Positions 45,044 through 61,898 of a stretch of DNA of 64,000 nt are shown here, piece after piece. The translations under genes and the position numbers were made by a program. This DNA comes from a virus: positions 32,001 to 96,000 of the IMG/VR virus record IMGVR_UViG_3300043411_001575; one strand, written 5' to 3'. Within the stretch, counting starts at the first letter, position 1. Every line of letters begins with the position of its first letter. Under the pieces are notes generated by a model. That model had not been told where the DNA came from and did not search any database. It saw only the letters and a program-made list of their open reading frames with translations.

Positions 45044-45253
45044 ATGGAAAGCAAAATAGTTATTGAAATTACAAATGAATATGAGGCATCAAGACTTTTG
45101 AATCTCATAGAGGATGGTATGAAGATACTTAACAAACAAGGTCGTTCACAAAGAGGTATTGATGGATATACATATTCAGAATTACAAAAATGGCATGATA
45201 AGCTATCTAAATTTACAACTGTGAAATGCAATTTTGCAGATGGGGAAATCTAA
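45044..45253 (+). CDS. hypothetical protein
   Basis: ORF after promoter. Confidence 0.65.
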   Translation: MESKIVIEITNEYEASRLLNLIEDGMKILNKQGRSQRGIDGYTYSELQKWHDKLSKFTTVKCNFADGEI

Positions 45254-45383
45254 GCGATGGTAGGTAAATCGAAGCCGAAATTTGAATTTATTACAAATGT
45301 TTAATCAAGGCACTAATATTGAATTTTGCACGTCAGCCCCACTATTGCAAAACCGATGTTATAAGCCGTTTTTATTTTAAATT

Positions 45384-45758
45384 ATGGAAGTTACATATTA
45401 TCAATTCTGTAAAACAATAGCTGATGATTTAAAAATTGAGTTAAATCAAAAGCATAAAACTAAATTAAGTCAATTTCCAATAAAAAATGGAAAAAGAAAA
45501 ATCAATTCTTTTCACGATGCTATAATTGTAGATTCTAATGGAAATGAATATCCATATATGCTGGGGCAAACAATTAGGAACGAAGAAAAATTAATTGATT
45601 TTGATTACATATACATTACACTACCAAAAGGATTAGAACAAATATTAAAAGAAACTGGAATTAATTTAAAGTCAGAAAAATGCAAAATTTGTGAAGGTGG
45701 TGGATGGTACAGTCAAGGAACAAGGTATTTTTATAAAGATATTTCTTGTGAAGTGTAG
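45384..45758 (+). CDS. cassette hypothetical protein (cassette 45358-45780)
   Basis: Flanked by GTTATAAGCCGTTTT / AAAATGGCTTATAAC. Confidence 0.75.
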   Translation: MEVTYYQFCKTIADDLKIELNQKHKTKLSQFPIKNGKRKINSFHDAIIVDSNGNEYPYMLGQTIRNEEKLIDFDYIYITLPKGLEQILKETGINLKSEKCKICEGGGWYSQGTRYFYKDISCEV

Positions 45759-45773
45759 TCGTTCTAAAATGGC

Positions 45774-45896
45774 TTATAACGTATGGTGCTATACTTAGTG
45801 CCGATTTATGAAAACGAATGTTAATTATTAAAAACAAAAAGATGTTAAAAAACGAAATAACCGAGAATGAGGCATTGAGTATAGCACGTGTTAGTG
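45774..45896 (+). repeat. attC-like hairpin 1 (contains MTase start codon)
   Basis: TAAC..GTGCTATACTTAGTGCC/GGCATTGAGTATAGCAC..GTTA. Confidence 0.85.
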
Positions 45897-46882
45897 GCAG
45901 TACTTTTGTGAATGCTGATTGCTTCGATGTTTTTCCTTTTATTGAGGATAAATCAATTGATGCTATTATTTGCGATTTACCTTATGGAACTACTGCTTGT
46001 GCTTGGGATATAATAATACCTTTTGAGAAATTATGGAAAGAATATGATAGAGTTTTAAAAGACAAAGGAAGTATTATTTTGACAGCATCACAACCATTTA
46101 CAAGTATTTTACTTATGAGTAATTTAAAATGGTTTTCTCACGAATGGATTTGGGAAAAAGAAATGGGTAGCAATTTTATGTTAGCAAACAAGCAACCACT
46201 AAAAATACACGAAAGTATATTGGTTTTTAATAGACCAATAAATGAAGTGAAAAATGATTTTGGCAAATACTCGGATATTAGGGATTATTTTCAAGAAGAA
46301 AGAAAAAAAACAAATTTATCGTATAAAGAAATAAACGAAAAATGTTTTGGTAGTGCTTCAAATGGTGGTGGTATGGCTTCAAATATTTTAACGAGTTATA
46401 AGAAAGGTTGGAGTTTTCCAAGTAAAGAAAAATATGAAGCATTGCAAAAAATAGGTATTTGTAAAACTCCTTATAATGAATTGAAAAATGAATATTTAAA
46501 AGCATTTGAGATTGATAGAACATACAACCCTATAAAAACCGATGGTAAACCTTATGTAATTAAACAAGGTGGCGTTTCTGATGTTTACGGAAATAAAGAA
46601 AACAATATCACAACTGAAAATAACGGAGATAGATTTCCAACTTCAATTTTAAAAATCAAACGTGATAAAGAAAAAATACACCCAACAGCTAAACCGCTTG
46701 AACTTATGGAATACCTTGTTAAAACATATACCAACGAGGGCGACACGGTTTTAGATAATACAATGGGTTCAGGTACAACAAACTTAGCCTGTATCAAATT
46801 AAATCGCAAATCAATTGGAATAGAAAAGGAAAAACAATATTACGATGTGGCTGTTCGGAGGGCTTCGGAGTATTGCCACTAA
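45818..46882 (+). CDS. N6/N4 DNA methyltransferase (beta class) with internal HTH-like insertion
   Basis: DLPYG motif IV, HPTAKP, VLDNTMGSGTT motif I. Confidence 0.92.
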   Translation: MLIIKNKKMLKNEITENEALSIARVSGSTFVNADCFDVFPFIEDKSIDAIICDLPYGTTACAWDIIIPFEKLWKEYDRVLKDKGSIILTASQPFTSILLMSNLKWFSHEWIWEKEMGSNFMLANKQPLKIHESILVFNRPINEVKNDFGKYSDIRDYFQEERKKTNLSYKEINEKCFGSASNGGGMASNILTSYKKGWSFPSKEKYEALQKIGICKTPYNELKNEYLKAFEIDRTYNPIKTDGKPYVIKQGGVSDVYGNKENNITTENNGDRFPTSILKIKRDKEKIHPTAKPLELMEYLVKTYTNEGDTVLDNTMGSGTTNLACIKLNRKSIGIEKEKQYYDVAVRRASEYCH

Positions 46883-47007
46883 CGTATGGTGCTATACGAA
46901 GGAGGCGATTATTAGCACTAAAGTTGATGCGGAGTACAAATGTTTGTTTAACCACAAATGTTTCTACGGAGTACCAAACCGCCTCTTTTGTATAGCACGT
47001 GTTACCT
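46877..47007 (+). repeat. attC-like hairpin 2
   Basis: GTGCTATACGAAGGAGGCG/CGCCTCTTTTGTATAGCAC. Confidence 0.85.
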
Positions 47008-47073
47008 GCTGGTGTGGTTTATTTAGCAGGATTTTGATTTGAAAACGAATAGAAAATTTAAAAAGTTTTAGAA

Positions 47074-47319
47074 ATGGGAACACAAAAAATGTATGCAGTA
47101 GAATATAAAACGGATAGTAGTTCTACTTATGAAATATTTGAAAATTATGATGATGCCTTAGCGTTTGCTAATAGTAATGAAAATGCTATGTTTTTATTTA
47201 CGGCAGACTTTAATAAGGATAGAATTTATTTAGATGGCGAAACTTGGAATTATGATGATTTTGCCGACACTTTTATTAACCAAGAAACAATTGAAACTTA
47301 TGAAATATATGGGAAGTAA
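47074..47319 (+). CDS. cassette hypothetical protein
   Basis: ORF in cassette 47001-48095. Confidence 0.7.
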   Translation: MGTQKMYAVEYKTDSSSTYEIFENYDDALAFANSNENAMFLFTADFNKDRIYLDGETWNYDDFADTFINQETIETYEIYGK

Positions 47320-48067
47320 GGCAAGATTTAGTAAAGATATTTTGCCGATAATATTAAAAGATAGAACAGTCGAACAATGGTATGTTGAACCATTTGCAGG
47401 AGGAATGAACGCTATTTGCGAAGTAGGTGGTAATAGACTTGCTAACGATAAAAACTATCACTTAATTGAAATGTGGAAAGGATTAGCAAACGGAATTAAA
47501 TATCCAACGGACATACCAAAAGAATTGTATAACCTTGCAAGAGATGTGTATAATGGCAGAGAAACAAGGTTTGAACATAAAATGAATATGGCTGACGATA
47601 TGGTAGGATGGATTGGTTGGATGGGTTCTGCAAATGGAAGATTTTTTGATGGTGGATATAGTGGGAAATCAAACACAAAAATTGGAACTGTCCGTGATTA
47701 CATTAAGGAAGCAATAAGTAATATTGAAAAGCAATTACCAAAGATGGCAGGTGTTAAATTTGAAAATAAAGATTATACCAAATTGGAAATTCCTAATTGC
47801 AGTATTATTTATTGCGACATTCCATATCAAGGAACAAAACAATATTCAACATCAAAAGATTTTAACCATTCTAATTTTTGGAATTGGTGTAGAGAAAAAG
47901 CAAAGCAAGGACATACGATTTTTGTAAGTGAATACAATGCACCTGATGACTTTGAATGTGTTTGGCAAAAAGAGGCAAAATCTTCTTTATCGGCAAACGG
48001 CAAAATCGGTGGCAATAAGTTGAGCGTGGAAAAACTTTTTAAATTTTCTCCCACAAATGTTCAATAG
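47300..48067 (+). CDS. Dam/D12-class N6-adenine DNA methyltransferase
   Basis: MKYMGSK, YVEPFAGG, AND, YCDIPY, FVSEY. Confidence 0.92.
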   Translation: MKYMGSKARFSKDILPIILKDRTVEQWYVEPFAGGMNAICEVGGNRLANDKNYHLIEMWKGLANGIKYPTDIPKELYNLARDVYNGRETRFEHKMNMADDMVGWIGWMGSANGRFFDGGYSGKSNTKIGTVRDYIKEAISNIEKQLPKMAGVKFENKDYTKLEIPNCSIIYCDIPYQGTKQYSTSKDFNHSNFWNWCREKAKQGHTIFVSEYNAPDDFECVWQKEAKSSLSANGKIGGNKLSVEKLFKFSPTNVQ

Positions 48068-48088
48068 TAGCACTATCGTAGCACTTGC

Positions 48089-48154
48089 AGGTAACAGACA
48101 AGGCTATATTCTCGTGCCGTTTTTCACGGCATGGAATTATAGCCGATGTTATGC
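48089..48154 (+). repeat. attC-like hairpin 3 (same stem as hairpin 16)
   Basis: GGCTATATTCTCGTGCCG/CGGCATGGAATTATAGCC. Confidence 0.85.
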
Positions 48155-48233
48155 AAGTGGGTTGGGTTGTGGGTGGCTCGTTTCAAAACTCTTTTTCTTA
48201 TTTTTTTAGGGAGGGATTTTTTATTTTCTTTTT

Positions 48234-48266
48234 TACTTGCCAATTGACAATTTATGTTTATCTTTG
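48234..48266 (+). promoter_or_regulatory. cassette promoter/operator, repeated at 51771, 56831, 61529, 62489
   Basis: TACTTGCYAATTGACAATTTATGTTTATCTTTG: TTG -33 and TATCTTTG -7 around a near-palindrome. Confidence 0.85.
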
Positions 48267-48308
48267 TAGCAGATAATTTAATACTAACAATTTAAAAACA
48301 AAAACAAA

Positions 48309-48524
48309 ATGAGCAAAATCACAGACTTTTGGGTGGTTACTAAACCAACGAAAAATTCAACATTGGCAGATATTCTGTTTAGTGCAGATATGAAACGAAT
48401 GGAATTGCAGTTCAAAGGAGGATTGACTGGAAAGGAAATTGTTGGAACATTTACCACAAAAGACCAAGCTACAAAGGTTGCTAAAATGGCACTTTTAAAA
48501 GCTGGTGCAAATGTAAAATTTTAA
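48309..48524 (+). CDS. cassette hypothetical protein
   Basis: First ORF after cassette promoter. Confidence 0.75.
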   Translation: MSKITDFWVVTKPTKNSTLADILFSADMKRMELQFKGGLTGKEIVGTFTTKDQATKVAKMALLKAGANVKF

Positions 48525-48542
48525 CATCTAAAACGAAACAAA

Positions 48543-48734
48543 ATGGGAATTTCAAAAACACTTGACCAAAGCAGAACCATTGTTTACGAAAACAAACTCG
48601 TTACTTGGGTTGATTGGGCATCTAAGGATGTTCACAAAGGAACAATTAAAATAAAAATACTCGGCAGGAAAACTTACATAACTGTTGATTACAACGACTT
48701 GAAAAATGTAAGTGTTACTAAAATTAAAAAATAA
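48543..48734 (+). CDS. cassette hypothetical protein
   Basis: ORF with A-rich leader. Confidence 0.7.
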   Translation: MGISKTLDQSRTIVYENKLVTWVDWASKDVHKGTIKIKILGRKTYITVDYNDLKNVSVTKIKK

Positions 48735-48739
48735 AAACT

Positions 48740-48907
48740 ATGGCAACTAAACCTAAAGCACCGTTTCAGGTAGGCGGTTACAAAGTAAAATGGTCTACAT
48801 CAAATAAAACTTGGCAGATTTGGAAAGGCAGTAAATTGATTGACGATTTTACAACTAAAGAAAGTGCAAGAACAAAAGCCGAAAGACTAACAAGAGGCTC
48901 TTACTAA
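48740..48907 (+). CDS. cassette hypothetical protein (55 aa, below ORF-track cutoff)
   Basis: MATKPKAPFQ...RLTRGSY. Confidence 0.7.
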   Translation: MATKPKAPFQVGGYKVKWSTSNKTWQIWKGSKLIDDFTTKESARTKAERLTRGSY

Positions 48908-48917
48908 AAACAAAACA

Positions 48918-49070
48918 ATGAAACTATCTGTAACAGAATATGCAAAACAGCTTGGTGTAACTCGTCAGGCTGTTTTGTTACAGATTAAAGAAAAAAGGCT
49001 ACCAAAAAATGTTATAGTTGAAAAAATTGGTAATACTTATCTCTTATCTGTGCGTGGGCAAAAAAAATAA
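48918..49070 (+). CDS. small HTH DNA-binding protein, copy 1
   Basis: MKLSVTEYAKQLGVTRQAVLLQIKEKRLP. Confidence 0.85.
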   Translation: MKLSVTEYAKQLGVTRQAVLLQIKEKRLPKNVIVEKIGNTYLLSVRGQKK

Positions 49071-49091
49071 GAAAAAGAGTTTTGAAATGTT

Positions 49092-49213
49092 GCATAACGT
49101 TATCTCGCTTGGCGAGGTTTGGGGTTGAAACCCTATAATTTCTAATTTAAAACAAAATATAATGAACACCGATATAAACGAAAATCCCAAATCTTGCCAA
49201 ACGAGTGTTATGG
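49092..49213 (+). repeat. attC-like hairpin 4 (contains MTase start)
   Basis: CTCGCTTGGCGAGGTTTGGG/CCCAAATCTTGCCAAACGAG. Confidence 0.85.
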
Positions 49214-49998
49214 TTAGTGCGGATTTGATTAACAAAATTCATAATGAAAACTGCCTTGAAACAATGGCGAAAATGCCTGATAATTTTATTGATTTAACTG
49301 TTACCTCACCGCCTTATGATGGATTAAGAACGTACAACGGTTATAGTTTTGATTTTGAAAGTGTCGCAAAAGAATTATACCGAGTTACTAAAGAGGGTGG
49401 TGTTGTAGTGTGGGTTGTGGGCGATGCAACAGTAAAAGGCAGTGAAAGTTTAACATCATTTAAACAAGCTATTTATTTCAAAGATATTGGGTTTTCTGTA
49501 GAAACTATGATTTATGAAAAGGCGCAATCTTGCTTTGGTAGTAACACCTATTATTTGCAGGCGTTTGAATATATGTTTGTTTTAACTAAAGGCACTAAAC
49601 CAAAAGCAATTAATCATTTACGTGACCGCAGAAATGAGCGTAGTGGCGTTGAGAGTATGGGAAAAGGAGGCTTAAATAAAAACGGCACTAAAACAGACAG
49701 GCATAAAAAAGAAATGCTCGAATATGGTAAGCGAAAAAATATATGGAAATACGGAGTGGGTGGAGGCAAGACGGGACATCCTGCGGTATTTCCTGAACAG
49801 CTCGCAAACGACCATATAATTTCGTGGAGCAATGAAAACGATATTGTTTACGATTGCTTTAGCGGAAGCGGAACAACTGCTAAAATGAGTATAATTAATA
49901 GCAGGCGATGGATAGCGTCTGAAATGAGTGCTGAATATTGCGATATTATAAAAGAACGTATTAAAGTAGATAAAGGTCTTTTTGAAAACGTATCGTAG
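49162..49998 (+). CDS. N4-cytosine/N6 DNA methyltransferase
   Basis: TSPPY, HPAVFP, YDCFSGSGTT. Confidence 0.92.
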   Translation: MNTDINENPKSCQTSVMVSADLINKIHNENCLETMAKMPDNFIDLTVTSPPYDGLRTYNGYSFDFESVAKELYRVTKEGGVVVWVVGDATVKGSESLTSFKQAIYFKDIGFSVETMIYEKAQSCFGSNTYYLQAFEYMFVLTKGTKPKAINHLRDRRNERSGVESMGKGGLNKNGTKTDRHKKEMLEYGKRKNIWKYGVGGGKTGHPAVFPEQLANDHIISWSNENDIVYDCFSGSGTTAKMSIINSRRWIASEMSAEYCDIIKERIKVDKGLFENVS

Positions 49999-50004
49999 CA
50001 TTAA

Positions 50005-50099
50005 CCATAACGGATGGTGCTATGAGCAGGTTTGCCTTGTAGAAATGTTCAAGTTACCGAAAATGTTATTGGCAAACTTGCTTATAGCACGTGTTATAC
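50005..50099 (+). repeat. attC-like hairpin 5
   Basis: GTGCTATGAGCAGGTTTGCC/GGCAAACTTGCTTATAGCAC. Confidence 0.85.
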
Positions 50100-50156
50100 G
50101 CTGGCACGGTAAATTCAGCAGAAACTTAATTTGAAAAACTAAAAGAAAAAATAAAA

Positions 50157-50735
50157 ATGAGCAAAGGAGATTTTACAACATTAGGAGCATCAGCACACTC
50201 AAAAGAAGAGCGTGAAGAAAATGACTTTTATGCAACAGACCCAAAAGCATTAGAGATATTCCTTGAACAAACAGGGATTGAATTGCGAAACGTATGGGAA
50301 TGTGCTTGTGGAGAAGGGCATTTGGCAAAAGTATTAGATGCAAGAGGATTGCTTGGAAGAGCAAGTGATTTGATTGATAGAGGTTATGGAATAACGGAGA
50401 GTAATTTCTACTACTTTTCTGAAATATGGGAAGGAGATATATTAACAAATCCACCATACGGAGATGCTATGAAATTTTGCCAACACGCTCTTGATTGTGT
50501 GGATGAAGGAAGTAAAGTAGTGATGCTTATGCGTATTCAATTCTTAGAAGGGCAAAGACGTAAACCTTTTCTTTTGAAAAACCCGCCAAAGTATGTTTAT
50601 GTTAGCAGTAGCCGATTGTTACTCGCTAAAAACGCAGACTTTGTAAAGTACAACACACCTTCCGCTAATTGCTATGCGTGGTATGTTTGGGAAAAAGGAT
50701 TTAAAGGCGAAACTACTTTACGTTGGTTTAATTAA
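50157..50735 (+). CDS. compact N6-adenine DNA methyltransferase
   Basis: DFYATDP, WECACGEG, ILTNPPY, YAWYVW. Confidence 0.9.
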   Translation: MSKGDFTTLGASAHSKEEREENDFYATDPKALEIFLEQTGIELRNVWECACGEGHLAKVLDARGLLGRASDLIDRGYGITESNFYYFSEIWEGDILTNPPYGDAMKFCQHALDCVDEGSKVVMLMRIQFLEGQRRKPFLLKNPPKYVYVSSSRLLLAKNADFVKYNTPSANCYAWYVWEKGFKGETTLRWFN

Positions 50736-50804
50736 AAAGTGCGTGGGAAGATTTTTATTTTTTCTCTCACAAATGTTGAATCGAAGAACGAATGTAGTGC
50801 TTGC

Positions 50805-50937
50805 GTATAACGGCATCGGGCTTTGTGTCCGTTGGCGACTTAACCCACCAATGTTAAATTAAAAAACGAAACTTGATATGAGTACAAATGATGAATTGAA
50901 AAACGAAACCGCCAATGGCACAAAACCCGTGTTATCG
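50805..50937 (+). repeat. attC-like hairpin 6 (contains ORF start)
   Basis: CGGGCTTTGTGTCCGTTGGCG/CGCCAATGGCACAAAACCCG. Confidence 0.85.
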
Positions 50938-51150
50938 GCTGGTTGGATTTCTGTAAAAGAGCAATTACCTGAATATTGGAGTCAACACCGAAATGATTAT
51001 GGAAGTGGTTACGTTCTTGGTTATACTAAATATGGTGAATGGGAAATAACTCAACTTTGGAATAATAAAGATTGGGAAGGTGATGATGACAATGAAGGTG
51101 ATTATATTACTCATTGGATGCCGTTGACCGTTCCACCAACTTGCCGATAA
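50878..51150 (+). CDS. DUF551 family protein
   Basis: WISVKEQLP...ITHWMPL..PP. Confidence 0.85.
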   Translation: MSTNDELKNETANGTKPVLSAGWISVKEQLPEYWSQHRNDYGSGYVLGYTKYGEWEITQLWNNKDWEGDDDNEGDYITHWMPLTVPPTCR

Positions 51151-51280
51151 CGTATCGTGGCTTTGTTGTCGTTGTGGCTATTTAAGACCAAACTTAACAA
51201 ATAATAACTAAAAATTAAATTTATGACTGAACTTTCAAAAAATGCCCAAGTGCCACAATGCGACAAAACCGCTGTTAGTG
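51145..51280 (+). repeat. attC-like hairpin 7 (contains ORF start)
   Basis: GGCTTTGTTGTCGTTGTGGC/GCCACAATGCGACAAAACC. Confidence 0.85.
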
Positions 51281-51621
51281 GCTGTGTTTTAGGATTACCT
51301 GAAATTGGAAAAACATATAATTGCTTTGATGATGGGAAAATAAGTAAAAGTAGAATGTATCAAGTTACAATAAGTGAAATAATCCCATTTGAAAAAGCCG
51401 ATAATGAATTGTTAGAATTATGGGAAGAAGAAGGATTACCGAGTTATTGGTTGTTTGAAAAAACAGATTATTTCATAAAATTTAAAAGTACAGAATTTAA
51501 AGACGAACCAAACGGAGTTTTTGCAAGAACTAAAAACGGTGGTTGGTTTGGTTTAGGGAACTATTGGAATAGTGGTAGATTAGATGTTGACGGCTCTTTA
51601 ACGCAAAGCTTGTCAACATAG
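51223..51621 (+). CDS. cassette hypothetical protein
   Basis: ORF crossing GTT junction at 51274. Confidence 0.75.
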   Translation: MTELSKNAQVPQCDKTAVSGCVLGLPEIGKTYNCFDDGKISKSRMYQVTISEIIPFEKADNELLELWEEEGLPSYWLFEKTDYFIKFKSTEFKDEPNGVFARTKNGGWFGLGNYWNSGRLDVDGSLTQSLST

Positions 51622-51622
51622 C

Positions 51623-51685
51623 CACTAACGGCATCCGTATAAGGGAAGTGCGAGGAACGAGCATTTACTTTATACGGTGTTAGCA
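51623..51685 (+). repeat. attC-like hairpin 8
   Basis: CCGTATAAGG/TTTATACGG. Confidence 0.8.
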
Positions 51686-51850
51686 AAGTGCGTTGGGCTG
51701 TGTGTTGGCTCGTTCCAAAACCATTTATTTTCTTTTTTTTGGGGAGGTTTTGAAAACTTTTTTACTAAAATACTTGCTAAATGACAATTTATATTTATCT
51801 TTGAACCATATTAACAATTAAAAAATAAAAACAATTAAAAAATAAAAACA

Positions 51851-52036
51851 ATGACAAAATTCGGAACAACAACTTGCCAATTTTACAACGGAACAGATTC
51901 AGTAACCGTAAATTCATCACTATTCAGAACCATTAGAGGTTGGGCTTCTACTGGTATTCCAAAAGATGCTATTAAAGGGGGAAGAAAGGTTTACGTTGCT
52001 AAAACAACTCTTGAACGCATTAAAAAAATTGCTTAA
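51851..52036 (+). CDS. cassette hypothetical protein
   Basis: ORF after cassette promoter 51771. Confidence 0.7.
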   Translation: MTKFGTTTCQFYNGTDSVTVNSSLFRTIRGWASTGIPKDAIKGGRKVYVAKTTLERIKKIA

Positions 52037-52221
52037 TGAGAATTTCTGTAACTGATTATGCAAAACAGCTTGGTGTAACTCGTCAAGCTGTTTTGTTACA
52101 GATTAAAGAAAAAAGGTTGCCTAATAATGTTAAGTCTGAAAAAATTGGCAACACTTACTCTTTAACTGTGGGTGGGCAAAAAAAGAATAAAAATGCTTCC
52201 AATAAACTACAATCGAAGTAG
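52036..52221 (+). CDS. small HTH DNA-binding protein, copy 2
   Basis: SVTDYAKQLGVTRQAV. Confidence 0.85.
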   Translation: MRISVTDYAKQLGVTRQAVLLQIKEKRLPNNVKSEKIGNTYSLTVGGQKKNKNASNKLQSK

Positions 52222-52236
52222 TATCGTAGCAATGGG

Positions 52237-52362
52237 GCATAACGGTTTCGGGCTTGGCGAAGTGGCTGAACTCGAAGCTAAATAGGATTACTAAACTTTA
52301 AAATTAAAAACGAATGTTAGATAGAATTACTGAACAGCCATTTTGCCAAACCCGTGTTATGT
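52237..52362 (+). repeat. attC-like hairpin 9 (near-identical to 12; contains MTase start)
   Basis: GGGCTTGGCGAAGTGGCTG/CAGCCATTTTGCCAAACCC. Confidence 0.85.
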
Positions 52363-53135
52363 GCAGGGCGGTTGATAATCTTGAACTCCTTTTGTCGCAG
52401 CCTGATGAAAGTGTAGATTTGATTTATTGCGATATACTTTACGGAACAGGTAGAAATTTCAGTGAATATCAGGACTTGAAACCAATTAGAAGTGAGATTG
52501 AAAGCCACTACCTACCACGTTTTATCGAAATGAAACGAGTCTTAAAACAAAGCGGCACTATATACATTCATACGGGAGTAAACACTTCCCATTGGATTAG
52601 AAGTTTAATGGATGATGTTTTTGGGTATAATAATTTTCAAAATGAAATTATATGGTACTACAAAAATTCCGCATTGAAAGCTAAGTCAAATAAATTTAGG
52701 CAGAATACAGATACTATACTTTACTATGTAAAAGAAAAGGGTAAACATATTTGGAATGATGTTTACGAAAAGTGTAAACCTTATAAAAACTCAAAGCATA
52801 AATTTAATCCAATAACAAAAAAAGCTGAAAGGCAGAGAAATGAAAGTGGTAGAATTGAATACTTTATGGTAGATGAAAGGAAGTGCGATAACCTAATTCA
52901 GATAAATGCTTTAAATAGTAGTGAAAAGGTTGGTTACCCTACTCAAAAACCAAAGGAACTAATAAGCCGTTTTGTTTTAGCTTCTACGAATGAAGGGGAT
53001 GTAGTGGCTGATTATTATTTAGGTAGTGGCACAACCGCAGTAGTTTGTAAAGAACTAAACCGAAATTTTATAGGTTGCGACATTAATCCAAAGGCTATTG
53101 AAATAACAAATGCTCGTTTAGATGCAGTTTCGTAG
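52314..53135 (+). CDS. N6/N4 DNA methyltransferase (atypical DILY motif IV)
   Basis: VDLIYCDILY, FQNEIIW, YPTQKP, DYYLGSGTT. Confidence 0.88.
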   Translation: MLDRITEQPFCQTRVMCRAVDNLELLLSQPDESVDLIYCDILYGTGRNFSEYQDLKPIRSEIESHYLPRFIEMKRVLKQSGTIYIHTGVNTSHWIRSLMDDVFGYNNFQNEIIWYYKNSALKAKSNKFRQNTDTILYYVKEKGKHIWNDVYEKCKPYKNSKHKFNPITKKAERQRNESGRIEYFMVDERKCDNLIQINALNSSEKVGYPTQKPKELISRFVLASTNEGDVVADYYLGSGTTAVVCKELNRNFIGCDINPKAIEITNARLDAVS

Positions 53136-53141
53136 CCTTGC

Positions 53142-53272
53142 GCATAACGGTCGAGTATTGGCGAAGAAGCGGATTTATACCACCAAAGCCGATACGAAGC
53201 ACTACACTTGATTGACCTACAAATGTTCATACGAAGCACCGAAACCGCTTTTTTGCCAATACTTTGTTAGTG
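53142..53272 (+). repeat. attC-like hairpin 10
   Basis: AGTATTGGCGAAGAAGCGG/CCGCTTTTTTGCCAATACT. Confidence 0.85.
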
Positions 53273-53412
53273 GCTGATGCGGATTTTTAGCACTCATTTT
53301 TAGTCAGTTAGAAAATATTTTGAAAATAGTTGAAAATAAATTTGGTTTGTATTGTTTTTGTATATACATTTGCATTACAATAATTAAGTAAAACAATTTA
53401 AAAACAAACAAA

Positions 53413-53820
53413 ATGGAAAAGCAAGTAAAAACAAACACATTGATAGCTGAATTTATGGGCTATGAAACTATCCCTTATAATGGAAACAAAAATGTTCCAA
53501 TTTATAATGGCAATAAGTATGCTAAAACAGTAGGTGAACAAAAAGCCTTATGGGGTGGATTAGATTTACAATTCACTGGAAGGTTTACGGAAAGAGTAAA
53601 CTACCCATTTGATACAGACTTTAATTATTTAATACCTGTTATTAAAAGAATAGAAGAGCAAGGGTATGTAGTAGCTATTAAAGGTATAAGCTACCAAGTT
53701 TATAAAGTTATGGATGAACAAAACCCTATTATAAGTTTAGTTTGTGGGGATTTATCTAAAAAAACAGAAATGACTTGTGATTTAGTTACATCGTTTATTG
53801 AACAACTTAATAATAACTAA
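53413..53820 (+). CDS. cassette hypothetical phage protein
   Basis: NTLIAEFMG...L.PV..RIE; own TACATTTG promoter. Confidence 0.75.
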   Translation: MEKQVKTNTLIAEFMGYETIPYNGNKNVPIYNGNKYAKTVGEQKALWGGLDLQFTGRFTERVNYPFDTDFNYLIPVIKRIEEQGYVVAIKGISYQVYKVMDEQNPIISLVCGDLSKKTEMTCDLVTSFIEQLNNN

Positions 53821-53822
53821 TT

Positions 53823-54038
53823 ATGACTATCAAAAAATTTGACTACTCGAAAAGCACGGAGGATATATTTTACAAAATAATTTATCCTATTTATGCAAAG
53901 GAATTTTTATATGGCAATAGCTATGAAAACTTTGCTTTTACTGTATCAGCCAACTTTATATTAAACGCTCCGCAATGGGAATACATTTTGGAACATTGGG
54001 AACAAAAGGAAAGCATTTTAACATACGAAACCAAGTAA
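53823..54038 (+). CDS. cassette hypothetical protein
   Basis: ORF in cassette 53266-54226. Confidence 0.65.
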   Translation: MTIKKFDYSKSTEDIFYKIIYPIYAKEFLYGNSYENFAFTVSANFILNAPQWEYILEHWEQKESILTYETK

Positions 54039-54039
54039 T

Positions 54040-54207
54040 ATGGAAAAGAAAAAACGAGATATAAGCCTACCTAAAAGGTTTAATTCAGAAGATGTAAAGA
54101 AGTGGCAAGAACAAGCCAATTTAACAACTGGTGGTAATCTTACCCTATGGATGGAAAACGCTTTAAATAACGCTGTAAAGAAGCAGAATGTCAAATCGAA
54201 GCAGTAA
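54040..54207 (+). CDS. small ribbon-helix-helix-like protein (55 aa)
   Basis: RF.SED..KW.EQA....GGNLT.WMENALN; last gene of a promoter-bearing cassette. Confidence 0.6.
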   Translation: MEKKKRDISLPKRFNSEDVKKWQEQANLTTGGNLTLWMENALNNAVKKQNVKSKQ

Positions 54208-54219
54208 TGTAGCATTTGC

Positions 54220-54313
54220 CACTAACGGTTTGGTGTATGAGAAGGTTTGCTTAACTGAACTTTCAAATTACCACTAAACTTTATAACAAACTTTCTTATA
54301 CACCTTGTTATAC
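54220..54313 (+). repeat. attC-like hairpin 11
   Basis: GGTGTATGAGAAGGTTTG/CAAACTTTCTTATACACC. Confidence 0.85.
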
Positions 54314-54422
54314 ACAGTACGGTTTATTAAGGTAAAATGTTAATACGAAGAACAGATAAAAACTTTTTAAAAATGTGCGATGGAAAAATTAATTTCAAAT
54401 ATTTATATATAAAGATAAAACT

Positions 54423-54728
54423 ATGAGCAAAGAAATGAGAAAATACATAGACACATTCAAAGGTAGAATGTTAAAAGAAAATGTTGAAGTTAATCAACAG
54501 AAATCAATTCAACATATCATCAATAATGAAATAGTTGATAGATTTGATACTGGCAATGTTTCAATTACAACTGCTATTGAAGCAGTTAAAATAGCATATC
54601 AAGAAATTATTGATATGATTGAATTGAACTTTGAAACTGCTGGTGAATTAGGTGGTGGAATAACAGAAGCACAATCTATAATTAACAGAATTGAAGAATT
54701 TAAAAAAAGAGCGAAGGAGAATTTTTAA
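54423..54728 (+). CDS. cassette hypothetical protein
   Basis: ORF in cassette 54307-54781. Confidence 0.75.
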   Translation: MSKEMRKYIDTFKGRMLKENVEVNQQKSIQHIINNEIVDRFDTGNVSITTAIEAVKIAYQEIIDMIELNFETAGELGGGITEAQSIINRIEEFKKRAKENF

Positions 54729-54774
54729 AAGGTTTTTACACAGAACTATGATTGAAACATGAATGTAGTATTGT

Positions 54775-54900
54775 GTATAACGGTTTTGGGCTTGGCGAAG
54801 TGGCTGAACCCGATGCTAAATAGAATTACTAAACTTTAAAATTAAAAACGAATGATTGATAGAATTACCGAACAGCCATTTTGCCAAACCCGTGTTAGTG
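54775..54900 (+). repeat. attC-like hairpin 12 (contains MTase start)
   Basis: Same stem and loop as hairpin 9. Confidence 0.85.
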
Positions 54901-55619
54901 GCAGTACTTTTGTGAACGCTGATTGCTTTGATGTTTTTCCTTTTATTGAGGATAAATCAATAGATGCTATTATTTGCGACCTGCCTTATGGAACGACTAT
55001 TTTGAATTGGGATAAAATTTTACCTATTACAGAATTATGGAAACATTATAATCGTATTTTAAAAGATAATGGAGTGGTAGTTTTGTTTGGTGCTGAACCA
55101 TTTTCGACTATGTTAAGAAGTAGTAATATTTTGAATTATAAATATGATTGGATTTGGCAAAAAACAAGACCTTCATTATTCCAACACGCAAACAAAAGAC
55201 CAATGAAAGACCACGAAAATATTATGGTATTTTATAAAAAGCAGCCGACTTACAACCAAGAACTAAAAGAACTTGAAAAGCCAAATAAAAGATGGCGAAA
55301 AAATAAAATGGGTGCTTTTTTAGAAAATGGTTGCAATGATATTGAAAGCAAACAAACCAAGACAGGATTTAATAGGCAAATTTTAACCTATGCAATGCAC
55401 AATGTAGGAATGGAACATAAAACACAAAAGCCGATTGAACTTTTGGAATACCTTGTAAAAACATACACCAACGAAAACGATATGGTTTTAGACAATACAA
55501 TGGGTTCTGGAACAACAAATTTGGCTTGTATCAAATTAAATCGCAAGTCAATAGGAATAGAAAAGGAAAAACAATATTACGATGTCGCTGTTCGGCGTGC
55601 TTTGGAGTATTGCCACTAA
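54852..55619 (+). CDS. N6/N4 DNA methyltransferase, paralog of 45818
   Basis: DLPYG, HKTQKP, VLDNTMGSGTT; ends nearly identical to 45818. Confidence 0.92.
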   Translation: MIDRITEQPFCQTRVSGSTFVNADCFDVFPFIEDKSIDAIICDLPYGTTILNWDKILPITELWKHYNRILKDNGVVVLFGAEPFSTMLRSSNILNYKYDWIWQKTRPSLFQHANKRPMKDHENIMVFYKKQPTYNQELKELEKPNKRWRKNKMGAFLENGCNDIESKQTKTGFNRQILTYAMHNVGMEHKTQKPIELLEYLVKTYTNENDMVLDNTMGSGTTNLACIKLNRKSIGIEKEKQYYDVAVRRALEYCH

Positions 55620-56005
55620 CGGTGTGGGCTATGAGAAGTAAAACCCCTTTTTGTGCGGTGGATTTTGTAAATTTGTAATTATTAACTAAAACCTTTCGGA
55701 GTATAGGCAACCGAGTAAATGTTATGGCAAAAAAATATCTTATCAAATCGTGGAAAACAAATTCTGCATTTACAAAAACAGGAAAGTTTTATCAAAAACC
55801 ATTGGAAACAGATAGTAAATCAGAAGCTAATGAAATAGCCAAAGATTTGATTAAAAAACACAAAGTATATGCTGTTGAAATAGCAGTTTTTGATGAAAAA
55901 GCTAATGGATATACAAGAGCCGAATTGATTGGCAACTTTCCAAACAAAAAGTAGTTTTTACAGGTGCTGTGGCAGGGGTTTTATTTCTTATAGCCCCTGT
56001 TATGG
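55614..56005 (+). repeat. attC-like hairpin 13 with a gene in its loop
   Basis: GGGCTATGAGAAGTAAAACCCC...GGGGTTTTATTTCTTATAGCCC. Confidence 0.8.
55724..55954 (+). CDS. hypothetical protein nested in attC-like loop
   Basis: ORF with TAAATTTG promoter-like box upstream. Confidence 0.75.
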   Translation: MAKKYLIKSWKTNSAFTKTGKFYQKPLETDSKSEANEIAKDLIKKHKVYAVEIAVFDEKANGYTRAELIGNFPNKK

Positions 56006-56020
56006 CATCGTTTTAATGTG

Positions 56021-56116
56021 CCATAACGGCTCTAATAAACACAGTGCAGCGACCTACTGCACTTTAATAGCAGACGAAACGCCAACTCGCTGCATTGGGT
56101 TTATTTATTGTTGGCA
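56021..56116 (+). repeat. attC-like hairpin 14
   Basis: ATAAACACAGTGCAGCGA/TCGCTGCATTGGGTTTAT. Confidence 0.8.
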
Positions 56117-56129
56117 AATTCGTTCATAA

Positions 56130-56312
56130 ATGGAATTAACAGTAAAACAGATTCAAGAAAAGCAAAAGCAGCTTAAACGAGAGCTGCGTGACAAACTCAA
56201 CCAATTTGAGCAAGAAACAGGATTGAAAGTAACGGGCGAAATTCATTATGGATATACAGAAGAAAAAGACCAACATTGGTTGAGTTTAAAGTACTCGAAC
56301 CCATTTATGTAA
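56130..56312 (+). CDS. cassette hypothetical protein
   Basis: Flanked by GTTGGCAAA/TTTGCCAAC. Confidence 0.75.
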   Translation: MELTVKQIQEKQKQLKRELRDKLNQFEQETGLKVTGEIHYGYTEEKDQHWLSLKYSNPFM

Positions 56313-56316
56313 TGTT

Positions 56317-56449
56317 TGCCAACGGTTGAGGCTAACCGCACGTAGCGGAATTTGAAACACTTAATTATCAAAATATGACAGACTTAAATACAAGCACCGA
56401 AGTAACGCAACCCACTGAACCCGCTATTGCGGTTGAGCCTGTGTTAGCA
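56317..56449 (+). repeat. attC-like hairpin 15 (contains ORF start)
   Basis: AGGCTAACCGCACGTAGCGG/CCGCTATTGCGGTTGAGCCT. Confidence 0.85.
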
Positions 56450-56677
56450 CCAGTATTTGTTTATGAATTTCTTTATAATTCTGATTGTTGCGAAGGTGCA
56501 GCATCAACTGTAAGCATTCACAAAACAAAGAAAGGTGCTGAAATGGCAATGGAGTTTCATAAAAACGAAAAACTAAAAGAGTGGGAAAAAGAATGCAAAG
56601 AATATCCACCTACAAAAGAATATCCGTTTGATTTTGACCAATGGTGGGGAGTTCGTGAATGCGAGTTGCTTCCTTAA
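56375..56677 (+). CDS. cassette hypothetical protein
   Basis: ORF crossing GTT junction at 56443. Confidence 0.75.
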   Translation: MTDLNTSTEVTQPTEPAIAVEPVLAPVFVYEFLYNSDCCEGAASTVSIHKTKKGAEMAMEFHKNEKLKEWEKECKEYPPTKEYPFDFDQWWGVRECELLP

Positions 56678-56683
56678 TATTGG

Positions 56684-56749
56684 TGCTAACGTTTACGGCT
56701 ATATTCTCGTGCCGTTTTTCACGGCATGGAATTATAGCCGATGTTATGC
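56684..56749 (+). repeat. attC-like hairpin 16
   Basis: Identical stem to hairpin 3. Confidence 0.85.
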
Positions 56750-56903
56750 AAGTGCGTTGGCTTGTGGGTGGCACGTTTCAAAACTCTTTTTCTTATTTTT
56801 TTTAGAGAGGGATTTTTTTATTTTCTTTATTACTTGCTAATTGACAATTTATGTTTATCTTTGTAGCAGATAATTAATACTAACAATTTAAAATCAAAAC
56901 AAA

Positions 56904-57188
56904 ATGAGCAAAGCAGGATTAACAAAATTTTTAGCAAAGTTCCCAGATGACACTAAAAGCTGGGCTAAAGCAACAGATGAAGTTCGTGATATTGCACGAA
57001 CAGCAAAAGAATATTACAATGAAATAGAAGGCAAAGATATTCAACCTTGCGATTTCCGTTCAATGAAAACGCCTTCCGAATGGAACACAAAAGGTAAAAG
57101 CTACATTTTTAAAGTGTATGATAAAATGAGTGCAAAAACAAAAACAGAGTTTAACGGCTATTTGAAAAGCCACTTTAATATTAAATAA
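56904..57188 (+). CDS. cassette hypothetical protein
   Basis: ORF after cassette promoter 56831. Confidence 0.75.
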   Translation: MSKAGLTKFLAKFPDDTKSWAKATDEVRDIARTAKEYYNEIEGKDIQPCDFRSMKTPSEWNTKGKSYIFKVYDKMSAKTKTEFNGYLKSHFNIK

Positions 57189-57189
57189 A

Positions 57190-57348
57190 ATGGAGCAACT
57201 ATCTGTAACCGATTATGCAAAATTGCTTGGCGTAACTCGTCAGGCGATTTTGTTACAGATTAAAGAAAAAAGGTTGCCGAAAAATGTTACAGCAAAAAAA
57301 ATCGGGAACACTTATCTACTATCTGTGCGTAGGCAAAAAAGAAAATAA
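57190..57348 (+). CDS. small HTH DNA-binding protein, copy 3 (52 aa)
   Basis: MEQLSVTDYAKLLGVTRQAIL. Confidence 0.85.
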   Translation: MEQLSVTDYAKLLGVTRQAILLQIKEKRLPKNVTAKKIGNTYLLSVRRQKRK

Positions 57349-57474
57349 ATGGTTTTGGAATGTTTGCTAACGGTGTGGGCTATGAGAAGTAAAACCCCTT
57401 TTTGTGCGGTGGATTTTGTAAATTTGTAATTATTAACTAAAACCTTTCGGAGTATAGGAAACCGAAATAAAGTT

Positions 57475-57720
57475 ATGGCAAAATCAGTAGCAATTTTTCA
57501 AGAAAAATCATCTAAAACAGGAAGTTTTATTGGTGATAAAATTTATTATTACAAAACAAAAAATCCTAATTGGTGGTTTGTTTCAGTTGGCAAAGCATAT
57601 TTAGGGACTGTGCCTGAATACGGAAGCGGAACAGGGCAATTTAAAAACAAGAAACAATACCCGACTATTGCTTCATTGGAAAAATACCACAAAGAAGATA
57701 ATATTCACAGAGTAGATTAA
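57475..57720 (+). CDS. hypothetical protein
   Basis: ORF followed by terminator. Confidence 0.75.
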   Translation: MAKSVAIFQEKSSKTGSFIGDKIYYYKTKNPNWWFVSVGKAYLGTVPEYGSGTGQFKNKKQYPTIASLEKYHKEDNIHRVD

Positions 57721-57730
57721 TGTTATTTAT

Positions 57731-57765
57731 GTAGTGGCTATGCCTTATTGTAGCCACTACTTTTT
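57731..57765 (+). terminator. intrinsic terminator
   Basis: GTAGTGGCTA-loop-TAGCCACTAC TTTTT. Confidence 0.8.
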
Positions 57766-57833
57766 AATCTTTTCACAGTTTTGAAAAAACTGAAAGAGTG
57801 CGTGGGCTTTTTCTTTTTTAATAATTTAATTGC

Positions 57834-57926
57834 CACTAACGTTGAAGGGCTTGGCGAAGGTGGGCTTGTAGGATGCTCAATTTTAGCAGAATGTTTCTGC
57901 CCACTTTTGCCAAACCCGTGTTATAT
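57834..57926 (+). repeat. attC-like hairpin 18
   Basis: GGGCTTGGCGAAGGTGGGC/GCCCACTTTTGCCAAACCC. Confidence 0.85.
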
Positions 57927-57996
57927 GAAGTGCCGACTTATTTACGTTGAAGCCAAATTGGAACACTAAACAGAAAAACAAAAAGAAAAAAAAGGG

Positions 57997-58809
57997 ATGG
58001 AATTAAATAAAATACATTTAGGAGATTGTTTAGAAGTAATGAAAACTTTGCCAAATGAAAGCATTGATTGTATTGTTACTTCACCGCCATATTGGTTACA
58101 AAGAGATTACGGATGGGATGGACAATGGGGTATGGAAGAAACGTTTTATGAGTATTTGGATAAATTGTTTTTAATGATGGATGAAGCAAAACGAATATTG
58201 AAAAACGATGGAACTATTTTTGTAAATATTGGCGATGGCTATGCAAGAACAGGTGGAAAATCATTAGGTAAAAAACAACCAAACGCTTTATTGTATGCAA
58301 CACAAGAAGGGATAAGGGGCGGAAATAACAAGGGAGTTGCAGGAATACAAGATAAAACATTACTACAAATACCATATCGTTTTTCTATTGGCTGTATTGA
58401 TAGAGGATGGATTTTGCGAAACAATATAATTTGGTTTAAAAGAAACGCAATGCCCGAAAGTGTAAAGGACAGATTTACAAAATCACACGAAGTAATATTT
58501 ATGTTTTCTAAAAACAAAGAATACTTTTTTGACGAAAAATTTGTAACACAAGATGTTTGGGATATTCCTTTAACTCCTAACGGCACAAAACATATAGCAT
58601 CTTACAATACTGATTTAATTGGCAGACCTATTGTTTGCGGTTGCAGAAAGGGTGGAATAGTATTAGATATGTTTTGCGGAGCAGGAACAACAGGAATAAG
58701 AGCATTAGAACTTGGGAGAAACTTTATAGGGATAGATGGTAAAAAGGAATACGTTGATATGGCACAACAAAGAATTAATGATATTGTATCACAACCACAA
58801 TTATTTTAA
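57997..58809 (+). CDS. N4-cytosine DNA methyltransferase
   Basis: TSPPY, NIGD.Y, W.K.NAMPESVKDR, VLDMFCGAGTT. Confidence 0.92.
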   Translation: MELNKIHLGDCLEVMKTLPNESIDCIVTSPPYWLQRDYGWDGQWGMEETFYEYLDKLFLMMDEAKRILKNDGTIFVNIGDGYARTGGKSLGKKQPNALLYATQEGIRGGNNKGVAGIQDKTLLQIPYRFSIGCIDRGWILRNNIIWFKRNAMPESVKDRFTKSHEVIFMFSKNKEYFFDEKFVTQDVWDIPLTPNGTKHIASYNTDLIGRPIVCGCRKGGIVLDMFCGAGTTGIRALELGRNFIGIDGKKEYVDMAQQRINDIVSQPQLF

Positions 58810-58881
58810 AAGTGCGGTGGCTTTTTTCTTTTTGTTTTTCCTTCACGGAACTTCAATTGGAAACGGTCAGCAAGGCATTTC

Positions 58882-58949
58882 ATATAACGACCGTGTGTTT
58901 ATGTCAGGTTTTGCTTTTCGCAAAACTTGCATTAAACACAATGTTAGCA
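58882..58949 (+). repeat. attC-like hairpin 19
   Basis: TGTGTTTATGTCAGGTTTTGC/GCAAAACTTGCATTAAACACA. Confidence 0.85.
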
Positions 58950-59059
58950 AAGTGCGTTGGCTTGTGGGTGGCTCGTTGTATTTAATAAAAAAGAAAAAAA
59001 GGAAGGCGTGTGTTGGCTATTTTAATTTGTAAATTTGTATAAACATAAATCATATAAAA

Positions 59060-59896
59060 ATGAGTAGATATAATAATAGTGGAGATATTGAAGAAGTTTT
59101 ACCGAAAGAGGTATTACAGAAAATAAAAGACAAATTCAAAGCAAAGAGTTTTAAAAAACTTGGTTCAGGTAGATATGGAAGTGCTTTTAAAATAAGTCCA
59201 AAAAAGGTTTTGAAAATCACAAAAGATTTGAAAGAGTATGAATATGCTAAAAAAATTGAAGGACTGAAAAATAAACATATTGCTGATGTTTATGAAACAT
59301 ATCACTTTGAATATGGCGACACAAAGTATGCTGTAATAATTAAAGAATATTGCAATATTGGAGAAGCATATTTTGATAAACTAATAGATAGTTTTGCTGA
59401 ATACACGGGAAACGAAATGTCATTATCATTTGTTTCATCTGAATTTTTGCACGGAGATTTATCAAAGGCGGTTTTTGATAACTACTTTAAAAAGTATAAG
59501 CAAAATCAAGGTTACGCAACAGGATTTGCAGATGATTGGCAAGAAATGATAATGGAATTAAAGAACAAAAAAATCTATGTTAAAGATTTTAACGGTGCTA
59601 ATATTGGAACGAAGCCGAGTAATAATAACATCTGCATCATTGAACTTGGATTAGGTTATTGGGAAACCATAAAATTACCTGATGCAGACAAAATAATATT
59701 AAAGGAAGGTGGAACTATAATTGGAAATTTTGAACCGCTTGGCTCTGCAAAAGAATTAGGAATTAAACCGAAGATTGAGGGACACGATATGATTGCCATT
59801 TGTGATTGTGGAGAAAAATTTAGTTACCAAAACTCAAAGAAGAATATTGTTTGGGAATGTCCTGAATGTAAAAGAAGAAATAAGATTGTAGAATGA
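59060..59896 (+). CDS. protein-kinase-like enzyme with C-terminal Zn ribbon
   Basis: LGSGRYGSAF, VLKIT, KDFNGANIG, IELG; CDCG...CPEC. Confidence 0.8.
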   Translation: MSRYNNSGDIEEVLPKEVLQKIKDKFKAKSFKKLGSGRYGSAFKISPKKVLKITKDLKEYEYAKKIEGLKNKHIADVYETYHFEYGDTKYAVIIKEYCNIGEAYFDKLIDSFAEYTGNEMSLSFVSSEFLHGDLSKAVFDNYFKKYKQNQGYATGFADDWQEMIMELKNKKIYVKDFNGANIGTKPSNNNICIIELGLGYWETIKLPDADKIILKEGGTIIGNFEPLGSAKELGIKPKIEGHDMIAICDCGEKFSYQNSKKNIVWECPECKRRNKIVE

Positions 59897-59969
59897 TTTT
59901 AAACCTTTTCACAATTTTGAAAAAATTGAAGGGAGCGTGGGCTTTTTCTTTTTTATTAAATACAATGTT

Positions 59970-60299: not shown

Positions 60300-60357
60300 G
60301 AAGGTGTGGCAATTCCAAAATTTCAAATTATAGACAAAACTTTCTTGCCACACTTTT

Positions 60358-60488
60358 GCATAACGTTCCGAGTATTGGAGCAGTGCGGATTTAAACCACA
60401 AATGTTGATATAAAAAATGAAACTTAAATAAACCGATAACCTTTATTAGAAGCACTAAACCCGCATTGCTTACAATACTGTGTTATAG
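60358..60488 (+). repeat. attC-like hairpin 21
   Basis: AGTATTGGAGCAGTGCGG/CCGCATTGCTTACAATACT. Confidence 0.85.
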
Positions 60489-60540
60489 GGAGTGTTTTTA
60501 AAATTTTAGCGGGGATAATTACTAAATTTACAATAAAAAA

Positions 60541-60930: not shown

Positions 60931-60959
60931 GTGCGTGGGAAAAATTTTAAAAACATTTG

Positions 60960-61896: not shown

Positions 61897-61898
61897 TT

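Follow-up and report, generated by a model that had tools for sequence, protein, structure and literature searches.

How can a gene body without an initiation region of its own be translated, and can a recombination site supply the missing start? The question is raised by positions 45,774 to 56,677 of a 64,000-nucleotide (nt) stretch of the IMG/VR virus record IMGVR_UViG_3300043411_001575 (hereafter the window), where seven open reading frames (ORFs) begin inside the loop of a hairpin and run on, across the end of that hairpin, into the gene body behind it. The window comprises bases 32,001–96,000 of a record of 169,658 base pairs (bp), with a completeness estimate of 82%; its G+C content is approximately 30% and it contains numerous small co-directional genes. 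Parts of the reported stretch share 86–89% identity with methyltransferase regions from Flavobacterium siphophages and from an uncultured phage of 635 kilobases (kb). The phage is a large, Flavobacterium-type one, and the region belongs to a 38-kb integron-like array of approximately 50 units. We consider it likely that the hairpins of this array serve both as recombination sites and as translation-initiation heads, with TAAC as the main point of crossover and GTTA as a second one.

Anatomy of the array and its start-bearing hairpins

The array is made of gene bodies alternating with folded sites of the form TAACG...GTTA, and closes at a Xer-like tyrosine recombinase. Its extent was defined from the distribution of TAAC/GTTA motifs, the hairpins, the terminal inverted repeats of the bodies and the recombinase. 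TAACG and YGTGTTA motifs are restricted to one strand, between contig positions 77,777 and 114,894, and the right end of the array lies beyond the window, at window-equivalent position 83,695 (contig 115,695), the recombinase gene starting at contig position 115,704. Forty-seven complete TAAC...GTTA hairpins of 57–130 nt were defined, together with a few half sites. The cassette genes are small, and most of them encode DNA methyltransferases.

45358–64000, plus strand: cassette array, part lying within the window

The 6–7 nt behind each GTTA are the reverse complement of the 6–7 nt ahead of the next TAAC (mean match 5.0/7, versus 2.3/7 on average for the two flanks of the same hairpin). In a search conducted independently of the hairpins, 73 GTTA/TAAC pairs with complementary adjacent hexamers were retrieved from the array versus 21–24 from control regions of equal size. 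Thus, every gene body carries 10-nt terminal inverted repeats, which is what a cassette needs in order to form a complete, extended site on the excised circle. One body (window positions 56100–56320) is bounded by GTTG...CAAC instead of GTTA...TAAC, i.e. by a compensatory change in an otherwise invariant core. As in integrons, the array therefore consists of discrete cassettes with complementary ends, exchanged at a conserved core.

The hairpins follow a common plan: TAACG, a bulge (mostly of 4 nt), a stem of 3–4 bp, one mismatch, a long stem, a variable loop and GTTA. The bulge is found on the 5' arm only, beside TAACG. Because the loops differ too strongly in length to be aligned cleanly, pairing was evaluated by script. 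Under DNA parameters, folding favours the gene-sense strand over its complement at 44 of the 47 sites (mean fold energy −15.0 versus −12.8 kcal/mol; Wilcoxon p = 7e-9), with 116 G.T pairs. The extrahelical-base pattern of classical attC is not seen in these sites, and an Rfam search of the interval from 44 to 64 kb detected no attC-like family, only sub-threshold matches to STnc390. From their build, the sites can nonetheless be described as putatively attC-like.

Long hairpins (115–130 nt) bearing a start codon represent 15 of the 47 complete sites and belong to 10 distinct families, one of which is present six times; seven of them lie within the reported stretch. The initial annotation, made by a model from the sequence alone, had listed seven ORFs as starting in such loops after an A-rich leader and crossing the junction. 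All seven are present in the ORF list, and each ATG is located within a TAAC...GTTA hairpin. The A-rich leader is a general feature of these starts, except for the ATG at 45818, where it is a second in-frame ATG (45842), still in the loop, that bears the leader; 45842 is therefore the likelier start of this first ORF. The use of two reading frames also holds: five ORFs cross the junction as GTT-nnn, and the two starting at 50878 and 56375 as GTG-TTA.

45777–45893, plus strand: start-bearing hairpin of 117 nt; loop ATGs at 45818 and 45842; frame GTT
45818–46882, plus strand: N6_N4 methyltransferase, body SGSTFVNADCF; likelier start 45842
49095–49210, plus strand: start-bearing hairpin; loop ATG at 49162; frame GTT; second ATG right behind GTT (49210)
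49162–49998, plus strand: N6_N4 methyltransferase crossing the junction
50808–50934, plus strand: start-bearing hairpin; loop ATG at 50878; frame GTG-TTA
50878–51150, plus strand: DUF551 protein; full domain from residue 22, junction at residues 18–19
51148–51277, plus strand: start-bearing hairpin; loop ATG at 51223; frame GTT
51223–51621, plus strand: ORF of 132 amino acids (aa) crossing the junction; no Pfam match; next internal ATG 81 nt further
52240–52359, plus strand: start-bearing hairpin, one of six ‘M’-family copies in the array; ATG of the loop at 52314; frame GTT
52314–53135, plus strand: N6_N4 methyltransferase, body MCRAVDNLELLL; additional ATG right behind GTT
54778–54897, plus strand: start-bearing hairpin of the ‘M’ family, 94% identical to 52240–52359; both flanks differ
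54852–55619, plus strand: N6_N4 methyltransferase, body SGSTFVNADCF, of the same body family as 45890–46880
56318–56446, plus strand: start-bearing hairpin with core variant CAAC; loop ATG at 56375; frame GTG-TTA
56375–56677, plus strand: 100-aa ORF crossing the junction; next internal ATG 100 nt further

Two further units differ from these:

50008–50096, plus strand: short hairpin, loop without a start; an A-rich leader and an ATG (50157) belong to the next body itself
55721–56027, plus strand: body starting GTT-ATG, whose own ATG is used (ORF 55724–55954)

The latter body sits behind a degenerate site (55617–55724) in which the 3' arm is unpaired.

The re-pairing of leaders and bodies pointed out in the initial annotation is found within the stretch itself. 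A shared leader, M(L/I)DRITEQPFCQTRV (MLDRITEQPFCQTRV in ORF 52314 and MIDRITEQPFCQTRV in ORF 54852), stands ahead of two unrelated N6_N4 methyltransferase bodies, and the body SGSTFVNADCFDVFPF stands behind two unrelated leaders (ORFs 45818 and 54852), similarity beginning exactly at GTTA. In both comparisons, identity is switched on or off precisely at that core.

Crossover points and the recombinase

When the array was compared with itself by BLAST, 67 block ends fell at TAAC and 44 at GTTA. Exchange at the GTT junction, as initially proposed, is thus corroborated at the scale of the whole array. It also appears in public proteins, where an SGS(T/A) body follows at least nine different leaders, all of them ending at the valine (Val) encoded by GTT, a count to be set against the bias of the protein search for N-terminal variants towards matches sharing words with the query. 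One of these leaders, MLNLPPNPQFCQTDV, was checked at the DNA level in a 40-kb phage contig, and there lies in the loop of a different hairpin ahead of GTTAGTGGCA.

The accompanying idea that each hairpin is the tail of the upstream cassette and donates its start to the next one did not stand. Hairpin interiors, upstream body ends and downstream body starts were compared for all pairs of sites: 13 of the 31 pairs of similar hairpins share the downstream body, versus approximately 0 of 16 pairs with similar upstream bodies sharing the hairpin. We therefore dropped the classical polarity (crossover restricted to G|TT, the hairpin closing the cassette upstream of it) as the main mode, since similar hairpins never share upstream bodies. 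The downstream linkage, the excess of TAAC over GTTA breakpoints and the position of the recombinase at the downstream end of the array indicate instead that the hairpin is mostly the front end of the cassette that it starts. These observations suggest a mirror image of the classical integron cassette, in which the site would stand on the 5' side of its gene and the re-pairing of heads and bodies at GTT would be a second, less frequent event. One feature of the sites weighs against this assignment: by analogy with attC, the 4-nt bulge beside TAACG would predict crossover at GTTA and not at TAAC, so that any assignment of strand and cleavage site is tentative.

The last body is immediately followed by the gene of a 288-aa tyrosine recombinase, whose 5' end is turned towards the array. 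The best model for this enzyme is archaeal XerA (206 bits versus a cut-off of 220), and both IntI models remain below their cut-offs (TIGR02249, 154.8 bits versus 265; NF011946, 107.8 bits versus 435). Both IntI-model matches are split in two and skip approximately profile positions 192–239, which correspond to the IntI-specific insertion region. The closest solved structure is XerA from P. abyssi (4a8e), and VchIntIA (2a3v) is matched in two stretches. The enzyme is Xer-like and not an IntI, the additional domain specific to IntI being absent. In the spacer between the last cassette and the recombinase (contig 115,654–115,706), TAAC is followed by approximately 45 nt of AT-rich, non-palindromic sequence. 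Equivalent spacers are present in two other phage contigs (L060, 4128–4190; L022, 1552–1600), and in two of these three genomes GTTA stands just before the recombinase ATG; we regard this spacer as a candidate attI-like site. The two other contigs have the same head family and harbour a 39–43% identical recombinase in the same place and orientation. Among approximately 116 IMG/VR loci, of which short flanks were searched, only 2 displayed a recombinase homologue, and most small phages with these cassettes had none within the fetched flanks. The neighbouring recombinase would be the enzyme that catalyses the exchanges, and the DNA strand that it would use is likewise an inference.

Another route to the same re-pairing would be homologous recombination or gene conversion between hairpin arms and core, each head being always a part of its own cassette and the recombinase having no role at GTT. 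A link of hairpins to downstream but never to upstream bodies fits this explanation, as does TAAC being the commoner breakpoint. Natural hybrid hairpins with mismatched arms also exist (phage contigs L007 and L087) and count against a purely site-specific process: homologous recombination in conserved arms also shuffles heads, and some exchanges need not be site-specific. Such recombination, however, would scatter breakpoints along the arms and not concentrate them on a 4-nt core, whereas 28 of the 36 right-junction block ends fall on a single base, the final A of GTTA (the core being universal, exact ends at this position are partly forced). Moreover, hairpins 67306 and 70937 match at every base (100%), TAAC and GTTA included, and the sequences on either side of them are unrelated. 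We thus regard homologous recombination as unlikely to be the sole source of the re-pairing, and site-specific exchange as the preferred one.

Two nearly identical phage contigs (99.7–99.9%) illustrate the replacement of a cassette block (L006, 2150–5414, versus L007, 5024–5414). The right boundary of the block lies exactly at TAAC, and the left one within the 5' arm of a hairpin, generating the hybrid hairpin of L007. A boundary inside an arm is in line with homologous recombination; as evidence for the cleavage point, the pair was set aside as undecisive on account of that left boundary.

Two types of smaller rearrangement were also observed. ‘Empty’ mini-units of 29 nt (55999–56027 and 63903–63930), composed of GTTA, 5 nt, an 11-nt spacer, the complementary 5 nt and TAAC, lie at the end of a body and repeat the start of that same body. 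The SGSTF methyltransferases, for their part, are mosaic: among homologues that are 60–65% identical overall (proteins P0001–P0120), the first approximately 45 residues are near-identical. Within the window, the gene ends are 76–85% conserved at the nt level (45870–46123 with 54874–55127, and 46684–46901 with 55421–55638) around a differing centre (354 versus 255 aa). This centre is presumably the target-recognition part, and the mosaicism suggests a second layer of shuffling, inside the genes.

Probable start codons in the hairpin loops

Over the whole array, 19 junctions show, at GTTA, an open frame of 60 codons or more; a hairpin-internal ATG with an uninterrupted frame is present at 15 of them, versus 30 of the 122 other site-by-frame combinations (Fisher odds ratio 11.5, p = 8e-6), these counts being not fully independent as they include related copies and one hairpin family six times. 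The 20 nt preceding the loop ATGs have an A fraction of 0.57, close to that of 162 ordinary long genes of the phage (0.545; genome average 0.37), and the region of the ATG is mostly unpaired in the predicted fold.

Several bodies lack any alternative start. In ORF 50878, the DUF551 profile is matched over positions 1–68 of 68, and in a second phage contig (L002:17589–17945) a DUF4326 profile is matched over positions 3–82 of 82 from residue 25, the junction being at residue 21. Both domains begin 3–4 residues past the junction, and the next ATG, GTG or TTG occurs only 186–187 nt further (187 nt past the junction for ORF 50878). One copy of the SGSTF methyltransferase is free of ATG, GTG and TTG over the first 29 codons. 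In relatives of the SGSTF methyltransferases devoid of such a leader, the starting Met precedes the GDC motif by 5–8 residues, a position matching the beginning of the cassette body. In the GenBank annotation of tooticki6-1, a cultured phage, gp005 and gp004 begin at loop ATGs; gp006 of this phage has its own leader behind the hairpin. On this sequence-based evidence, the loop starts are very likely real.

Frame compatibility between hairpins and cassettes, which the initial annotation had suggested examining across genomes, was assessed by scanning IMG/VR with the 3' arm of the ‘M’ head, yielding 98 non-redundant sites. A head with its ATG at −42 continues in frame into 46 long ORFs from 15 unrelated body families, and a variant lacking 1 nt just after the ATG (ATG at −41) into 11 long ORFs from four other body families, which use the other frame. 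Only two to three of approximately 60 pairs of head and long ORF are out of frame. The two heads, 1 nt apart, thus match the frames of their bodies. Overall, the leader is fused in frame to a long ORF at 15 of 15 sites here and at 57 of 73 head-bearing IMG/VR sites. At 13 IMG/VR sites the head yields a short upstream ORF, the body behind it having its own start, and 23 hairpins without ATG likewise precede own-start bodies. The further suggestion that shuffling between frames could switch translation on or off describes a possible switch of which this array gives no example: it contains no start-less body behind an ATG-less or out-of-frame hairpin.

The loop ORFs might also be incidental extensions of the longest frame, the real starts lying in the bodies (the ATG after GTT, the GTG at codon 7 of SGSTF bodies, or the GTG of GTGTTA). 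Several observations favour this explanation and weigh against loop starts. In three of the 15 bodies (those at 49207, 52356 and window-equivalent 82891), GTT is immediately followed by an ATG; as the body at 55721 uses such an ATG without any loop start, the loop ATG may be redundant in these three. The GTG-TTA frame itself holds an in-frame GTG at the junction. The Val codon at +18 is GTG in 18 of 23 SGSTF-type bodies (78%), so that a second, internal start is possible there. Finally, open background frames are not rare, a quarter of arbitrary hairpin frames (25%) being open back to an ATG, and many of our counts rest on related copies. On the other hand, this codon is GTA, ATA or TAT in the five remaining SGSTF bodies, and no start codon is found before or near the start of the conserved domain in the DUF551 and DUF4326 bodies, in ORFs 51223 and 56375 and in the SGSTF copy mentioned above. 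Nor would incidental extension account for two head variants, each frame-matched, over 19 body families, or for loop leaders as A-rich as those of real genes. We consider it improbable that the loop ORFs are mere extensions, and retain the loop ATGs as starts. That the hairpins act at the RNA level only (as intercistronic stabilizers, terminators or translational regulators) is highly improbable, for although a better-folding gene-sense strand, its G.T pairs and a start codon in an open loop would suit RNA too, the bodies end in inverted repeats that show compensatory changes, units have been shuffled at exact breakpoints both inside single genomes and from one genome to another, a tyrosine recombinase stands at the array end in three genomes, and a related site from a Polaribacter phage was recombined by IntI1 in a published assay (PMC9892861).

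Combining start and exchange, the preferred mechanism would be as follows. The apical, unpaired loop of the long hairpins would present a Bacteroidota-style A-rich leader and an ATG, from which translation would proceed for 14–24 codons, through the 3' arm and the GTTA core, in frame into a body deprived of an initiation region. The recombination site would thereby double as a portable translation-initiation head. Heads and bodies would be separable: with the commoner crossover at the TAAC upstream of the hairpin, a head would usually travel with its gene, and exchange at GTTA, at the in-frame Val codon, would repeatedly re-pair heads and bodies, swapping N-termini (the first 15–25 amino acids).

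Other elements of the array concern its boundaries and possible promoters. At its left end (window positions 45250–45361), only a sequence resembling a 3' arm and ending in GATGTTA, without a matching 5' arm, precedes the first body (45358–45777). Four half sites (55617–55724, 57367–57475, 59973–60100 and 63546–63700) have TAACG and a normal 5' arm, their 3' arm being replaced by a T-run and a promoter-like TAAATTTG or TATCTTTG box with an A-rich leader; the first two share 96% identity. Five repeated modules (48224–48308, 51761–51845, 56821–56905, 61519–61603 and 62479–62563) each associate a promoter-like element (TTG-N19-TATCTTTG), which we take to be a promoter by the published Bacteroidota consensus, with two ORFs, one small and the other of 50 aa and helix-turn-helix-like. 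Within the coding sequence of the latter lies a 16-bp palindrome that gives rise to the STnc390 matches. The sequence at 48914–49079 and four further copies of it adjoin these modules, which look like promoter cassettes driving blocks of the array.

48224–48308, plus strand: promoter-like module, one of five; repeat TTG-N19-TATCTTTG

Relation to known systems and significance

The array resembles integrons (IntI/attI/attC, as in class 1 integrons and the chromosomal integron of Vibrio cholerae) in several respects:

— Single-gene cassettes are aligned on one strand, with imperfect hairpins with AAC...GTT cores between them.

— The complementary cassette ends are such that an excised circle would carry a complete, extended site.

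— A tyrosine recombinase lies at one end, its 5' end towards the array, beside a non-palindromic site.

The differences are equally marked. The phage recombinase is Xer-like, without the IntI insertion and below the cut-offs of both IntI models. Phage genes point towards the recombinase, with the site at their 5' end, whereas integron genes point away from it and have attC at their 3' end. Instead of a common Pc promoter, the array has repeated internal promoter-like modules, both ends of its hairpins are breakpoints, and the asymmetry of its sites is a 4-nt bulge and not the classical extrahelical bases. The array is, moreover, located in a phage. Classical integron cassettes rely on their own ribosome-binding site or on an attI leader.

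Clusters of attC sites that lack an integrase (CALINs) with methyltransferase cassettes have been described in virulent phages by Qi et al. (2023), including two cassettes in Polaribacter phage P12002L, a site from which was recombined by IntI1 at G|TT (PMC9892861). As in our array, the DNA methyltransferase genes of a Flavobacteriia phage are bordered there by attC-like sites. However, these CALINs comprise 2–4 sites per phage without a cognate recombinase (PMC9892861), versus approximately 50 units over 38 kb and a terminal recombinase here. Like a CALIN, the present array is devoid of IntI, but a non-IntI recombinase adjoins it. A term search in the text of PMC9892861 revealed no mention of start codons.

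Translational help from a recombination site has a precedent in attI1, whose ORF-11 and ORF-18, like short ORFs in attC, aid cassettes without a translation initiation region (PMC8876359). As for ORF-11, an initiation region and a short ORF are located here within the site, span the crossover point and serve start-less cassettes, and 13 of the 98 IMG/VR heads form such a short upstream ORF before an own-start body. ORF-11, however, operates by termination and reinitiation with a stop codon from the cassette core, whereas the phage leader is usually joined in frame to the cassette protein and is carried by the hairpin sites and not by an attI.

A family of approximately 125-nt hairpins without a fused start (46880–47004, 53145–53269 and 60361–60485, and, beyond the window, window-equivalent positions 69320, 71950 and 81789) is also reminiscent of ORF-11. 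The sequences ACAAATGTT and ATACGAAGCAC are repeated in its loop, and five of the six copies (all except 60361) contain, in the third frame, a short ORF that stops at GTTA or a few codons past it, for instance at the TAG of GTTAG.

Fused integron cassettes and the N-terminal fusions of aac(6')-Ib similarly borrow a start codon and first residues from upstream sequence (PMC4670013, PMC8876359). Such fusions arise through the loss of attC or by chance context, whereas the donor here is an intact, recurrent site with matched frame variants. Our literature search retrieved no description of start codons or in-frame leaders within attC-like loops, nor of so large a phage array associated with a recombinase other than IntI.

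More tentatively, at slightly less than an even chance, site-specific exchange at the in-frame Val codon would build expressed genes from a head and any start-less body, with head variants differing by 1 nt serving the different frames. The same enzyme system could then move genes, capture promoter-less and start-less fragments, and silence or activate them through the choice of head.

How start-less cassettes are expressed deep in arrays is an old question, and here it is the hairpin that would bring the initiation region and the start codon. Any coding fragment placed in frame behind such a hairpin would be expressed wherever it lands, and the site would also be a natural point for N-terminal domain swapping. 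Cultured relatives exist among the Flavobacterium phages of the genus Muminvirus. These results may extend integron-like gene capture to phages with a minimal, Xer-like recombinase, and suggest a way in which these phages could maintain and reassort their large sets of anti-restriction methyltransferases.

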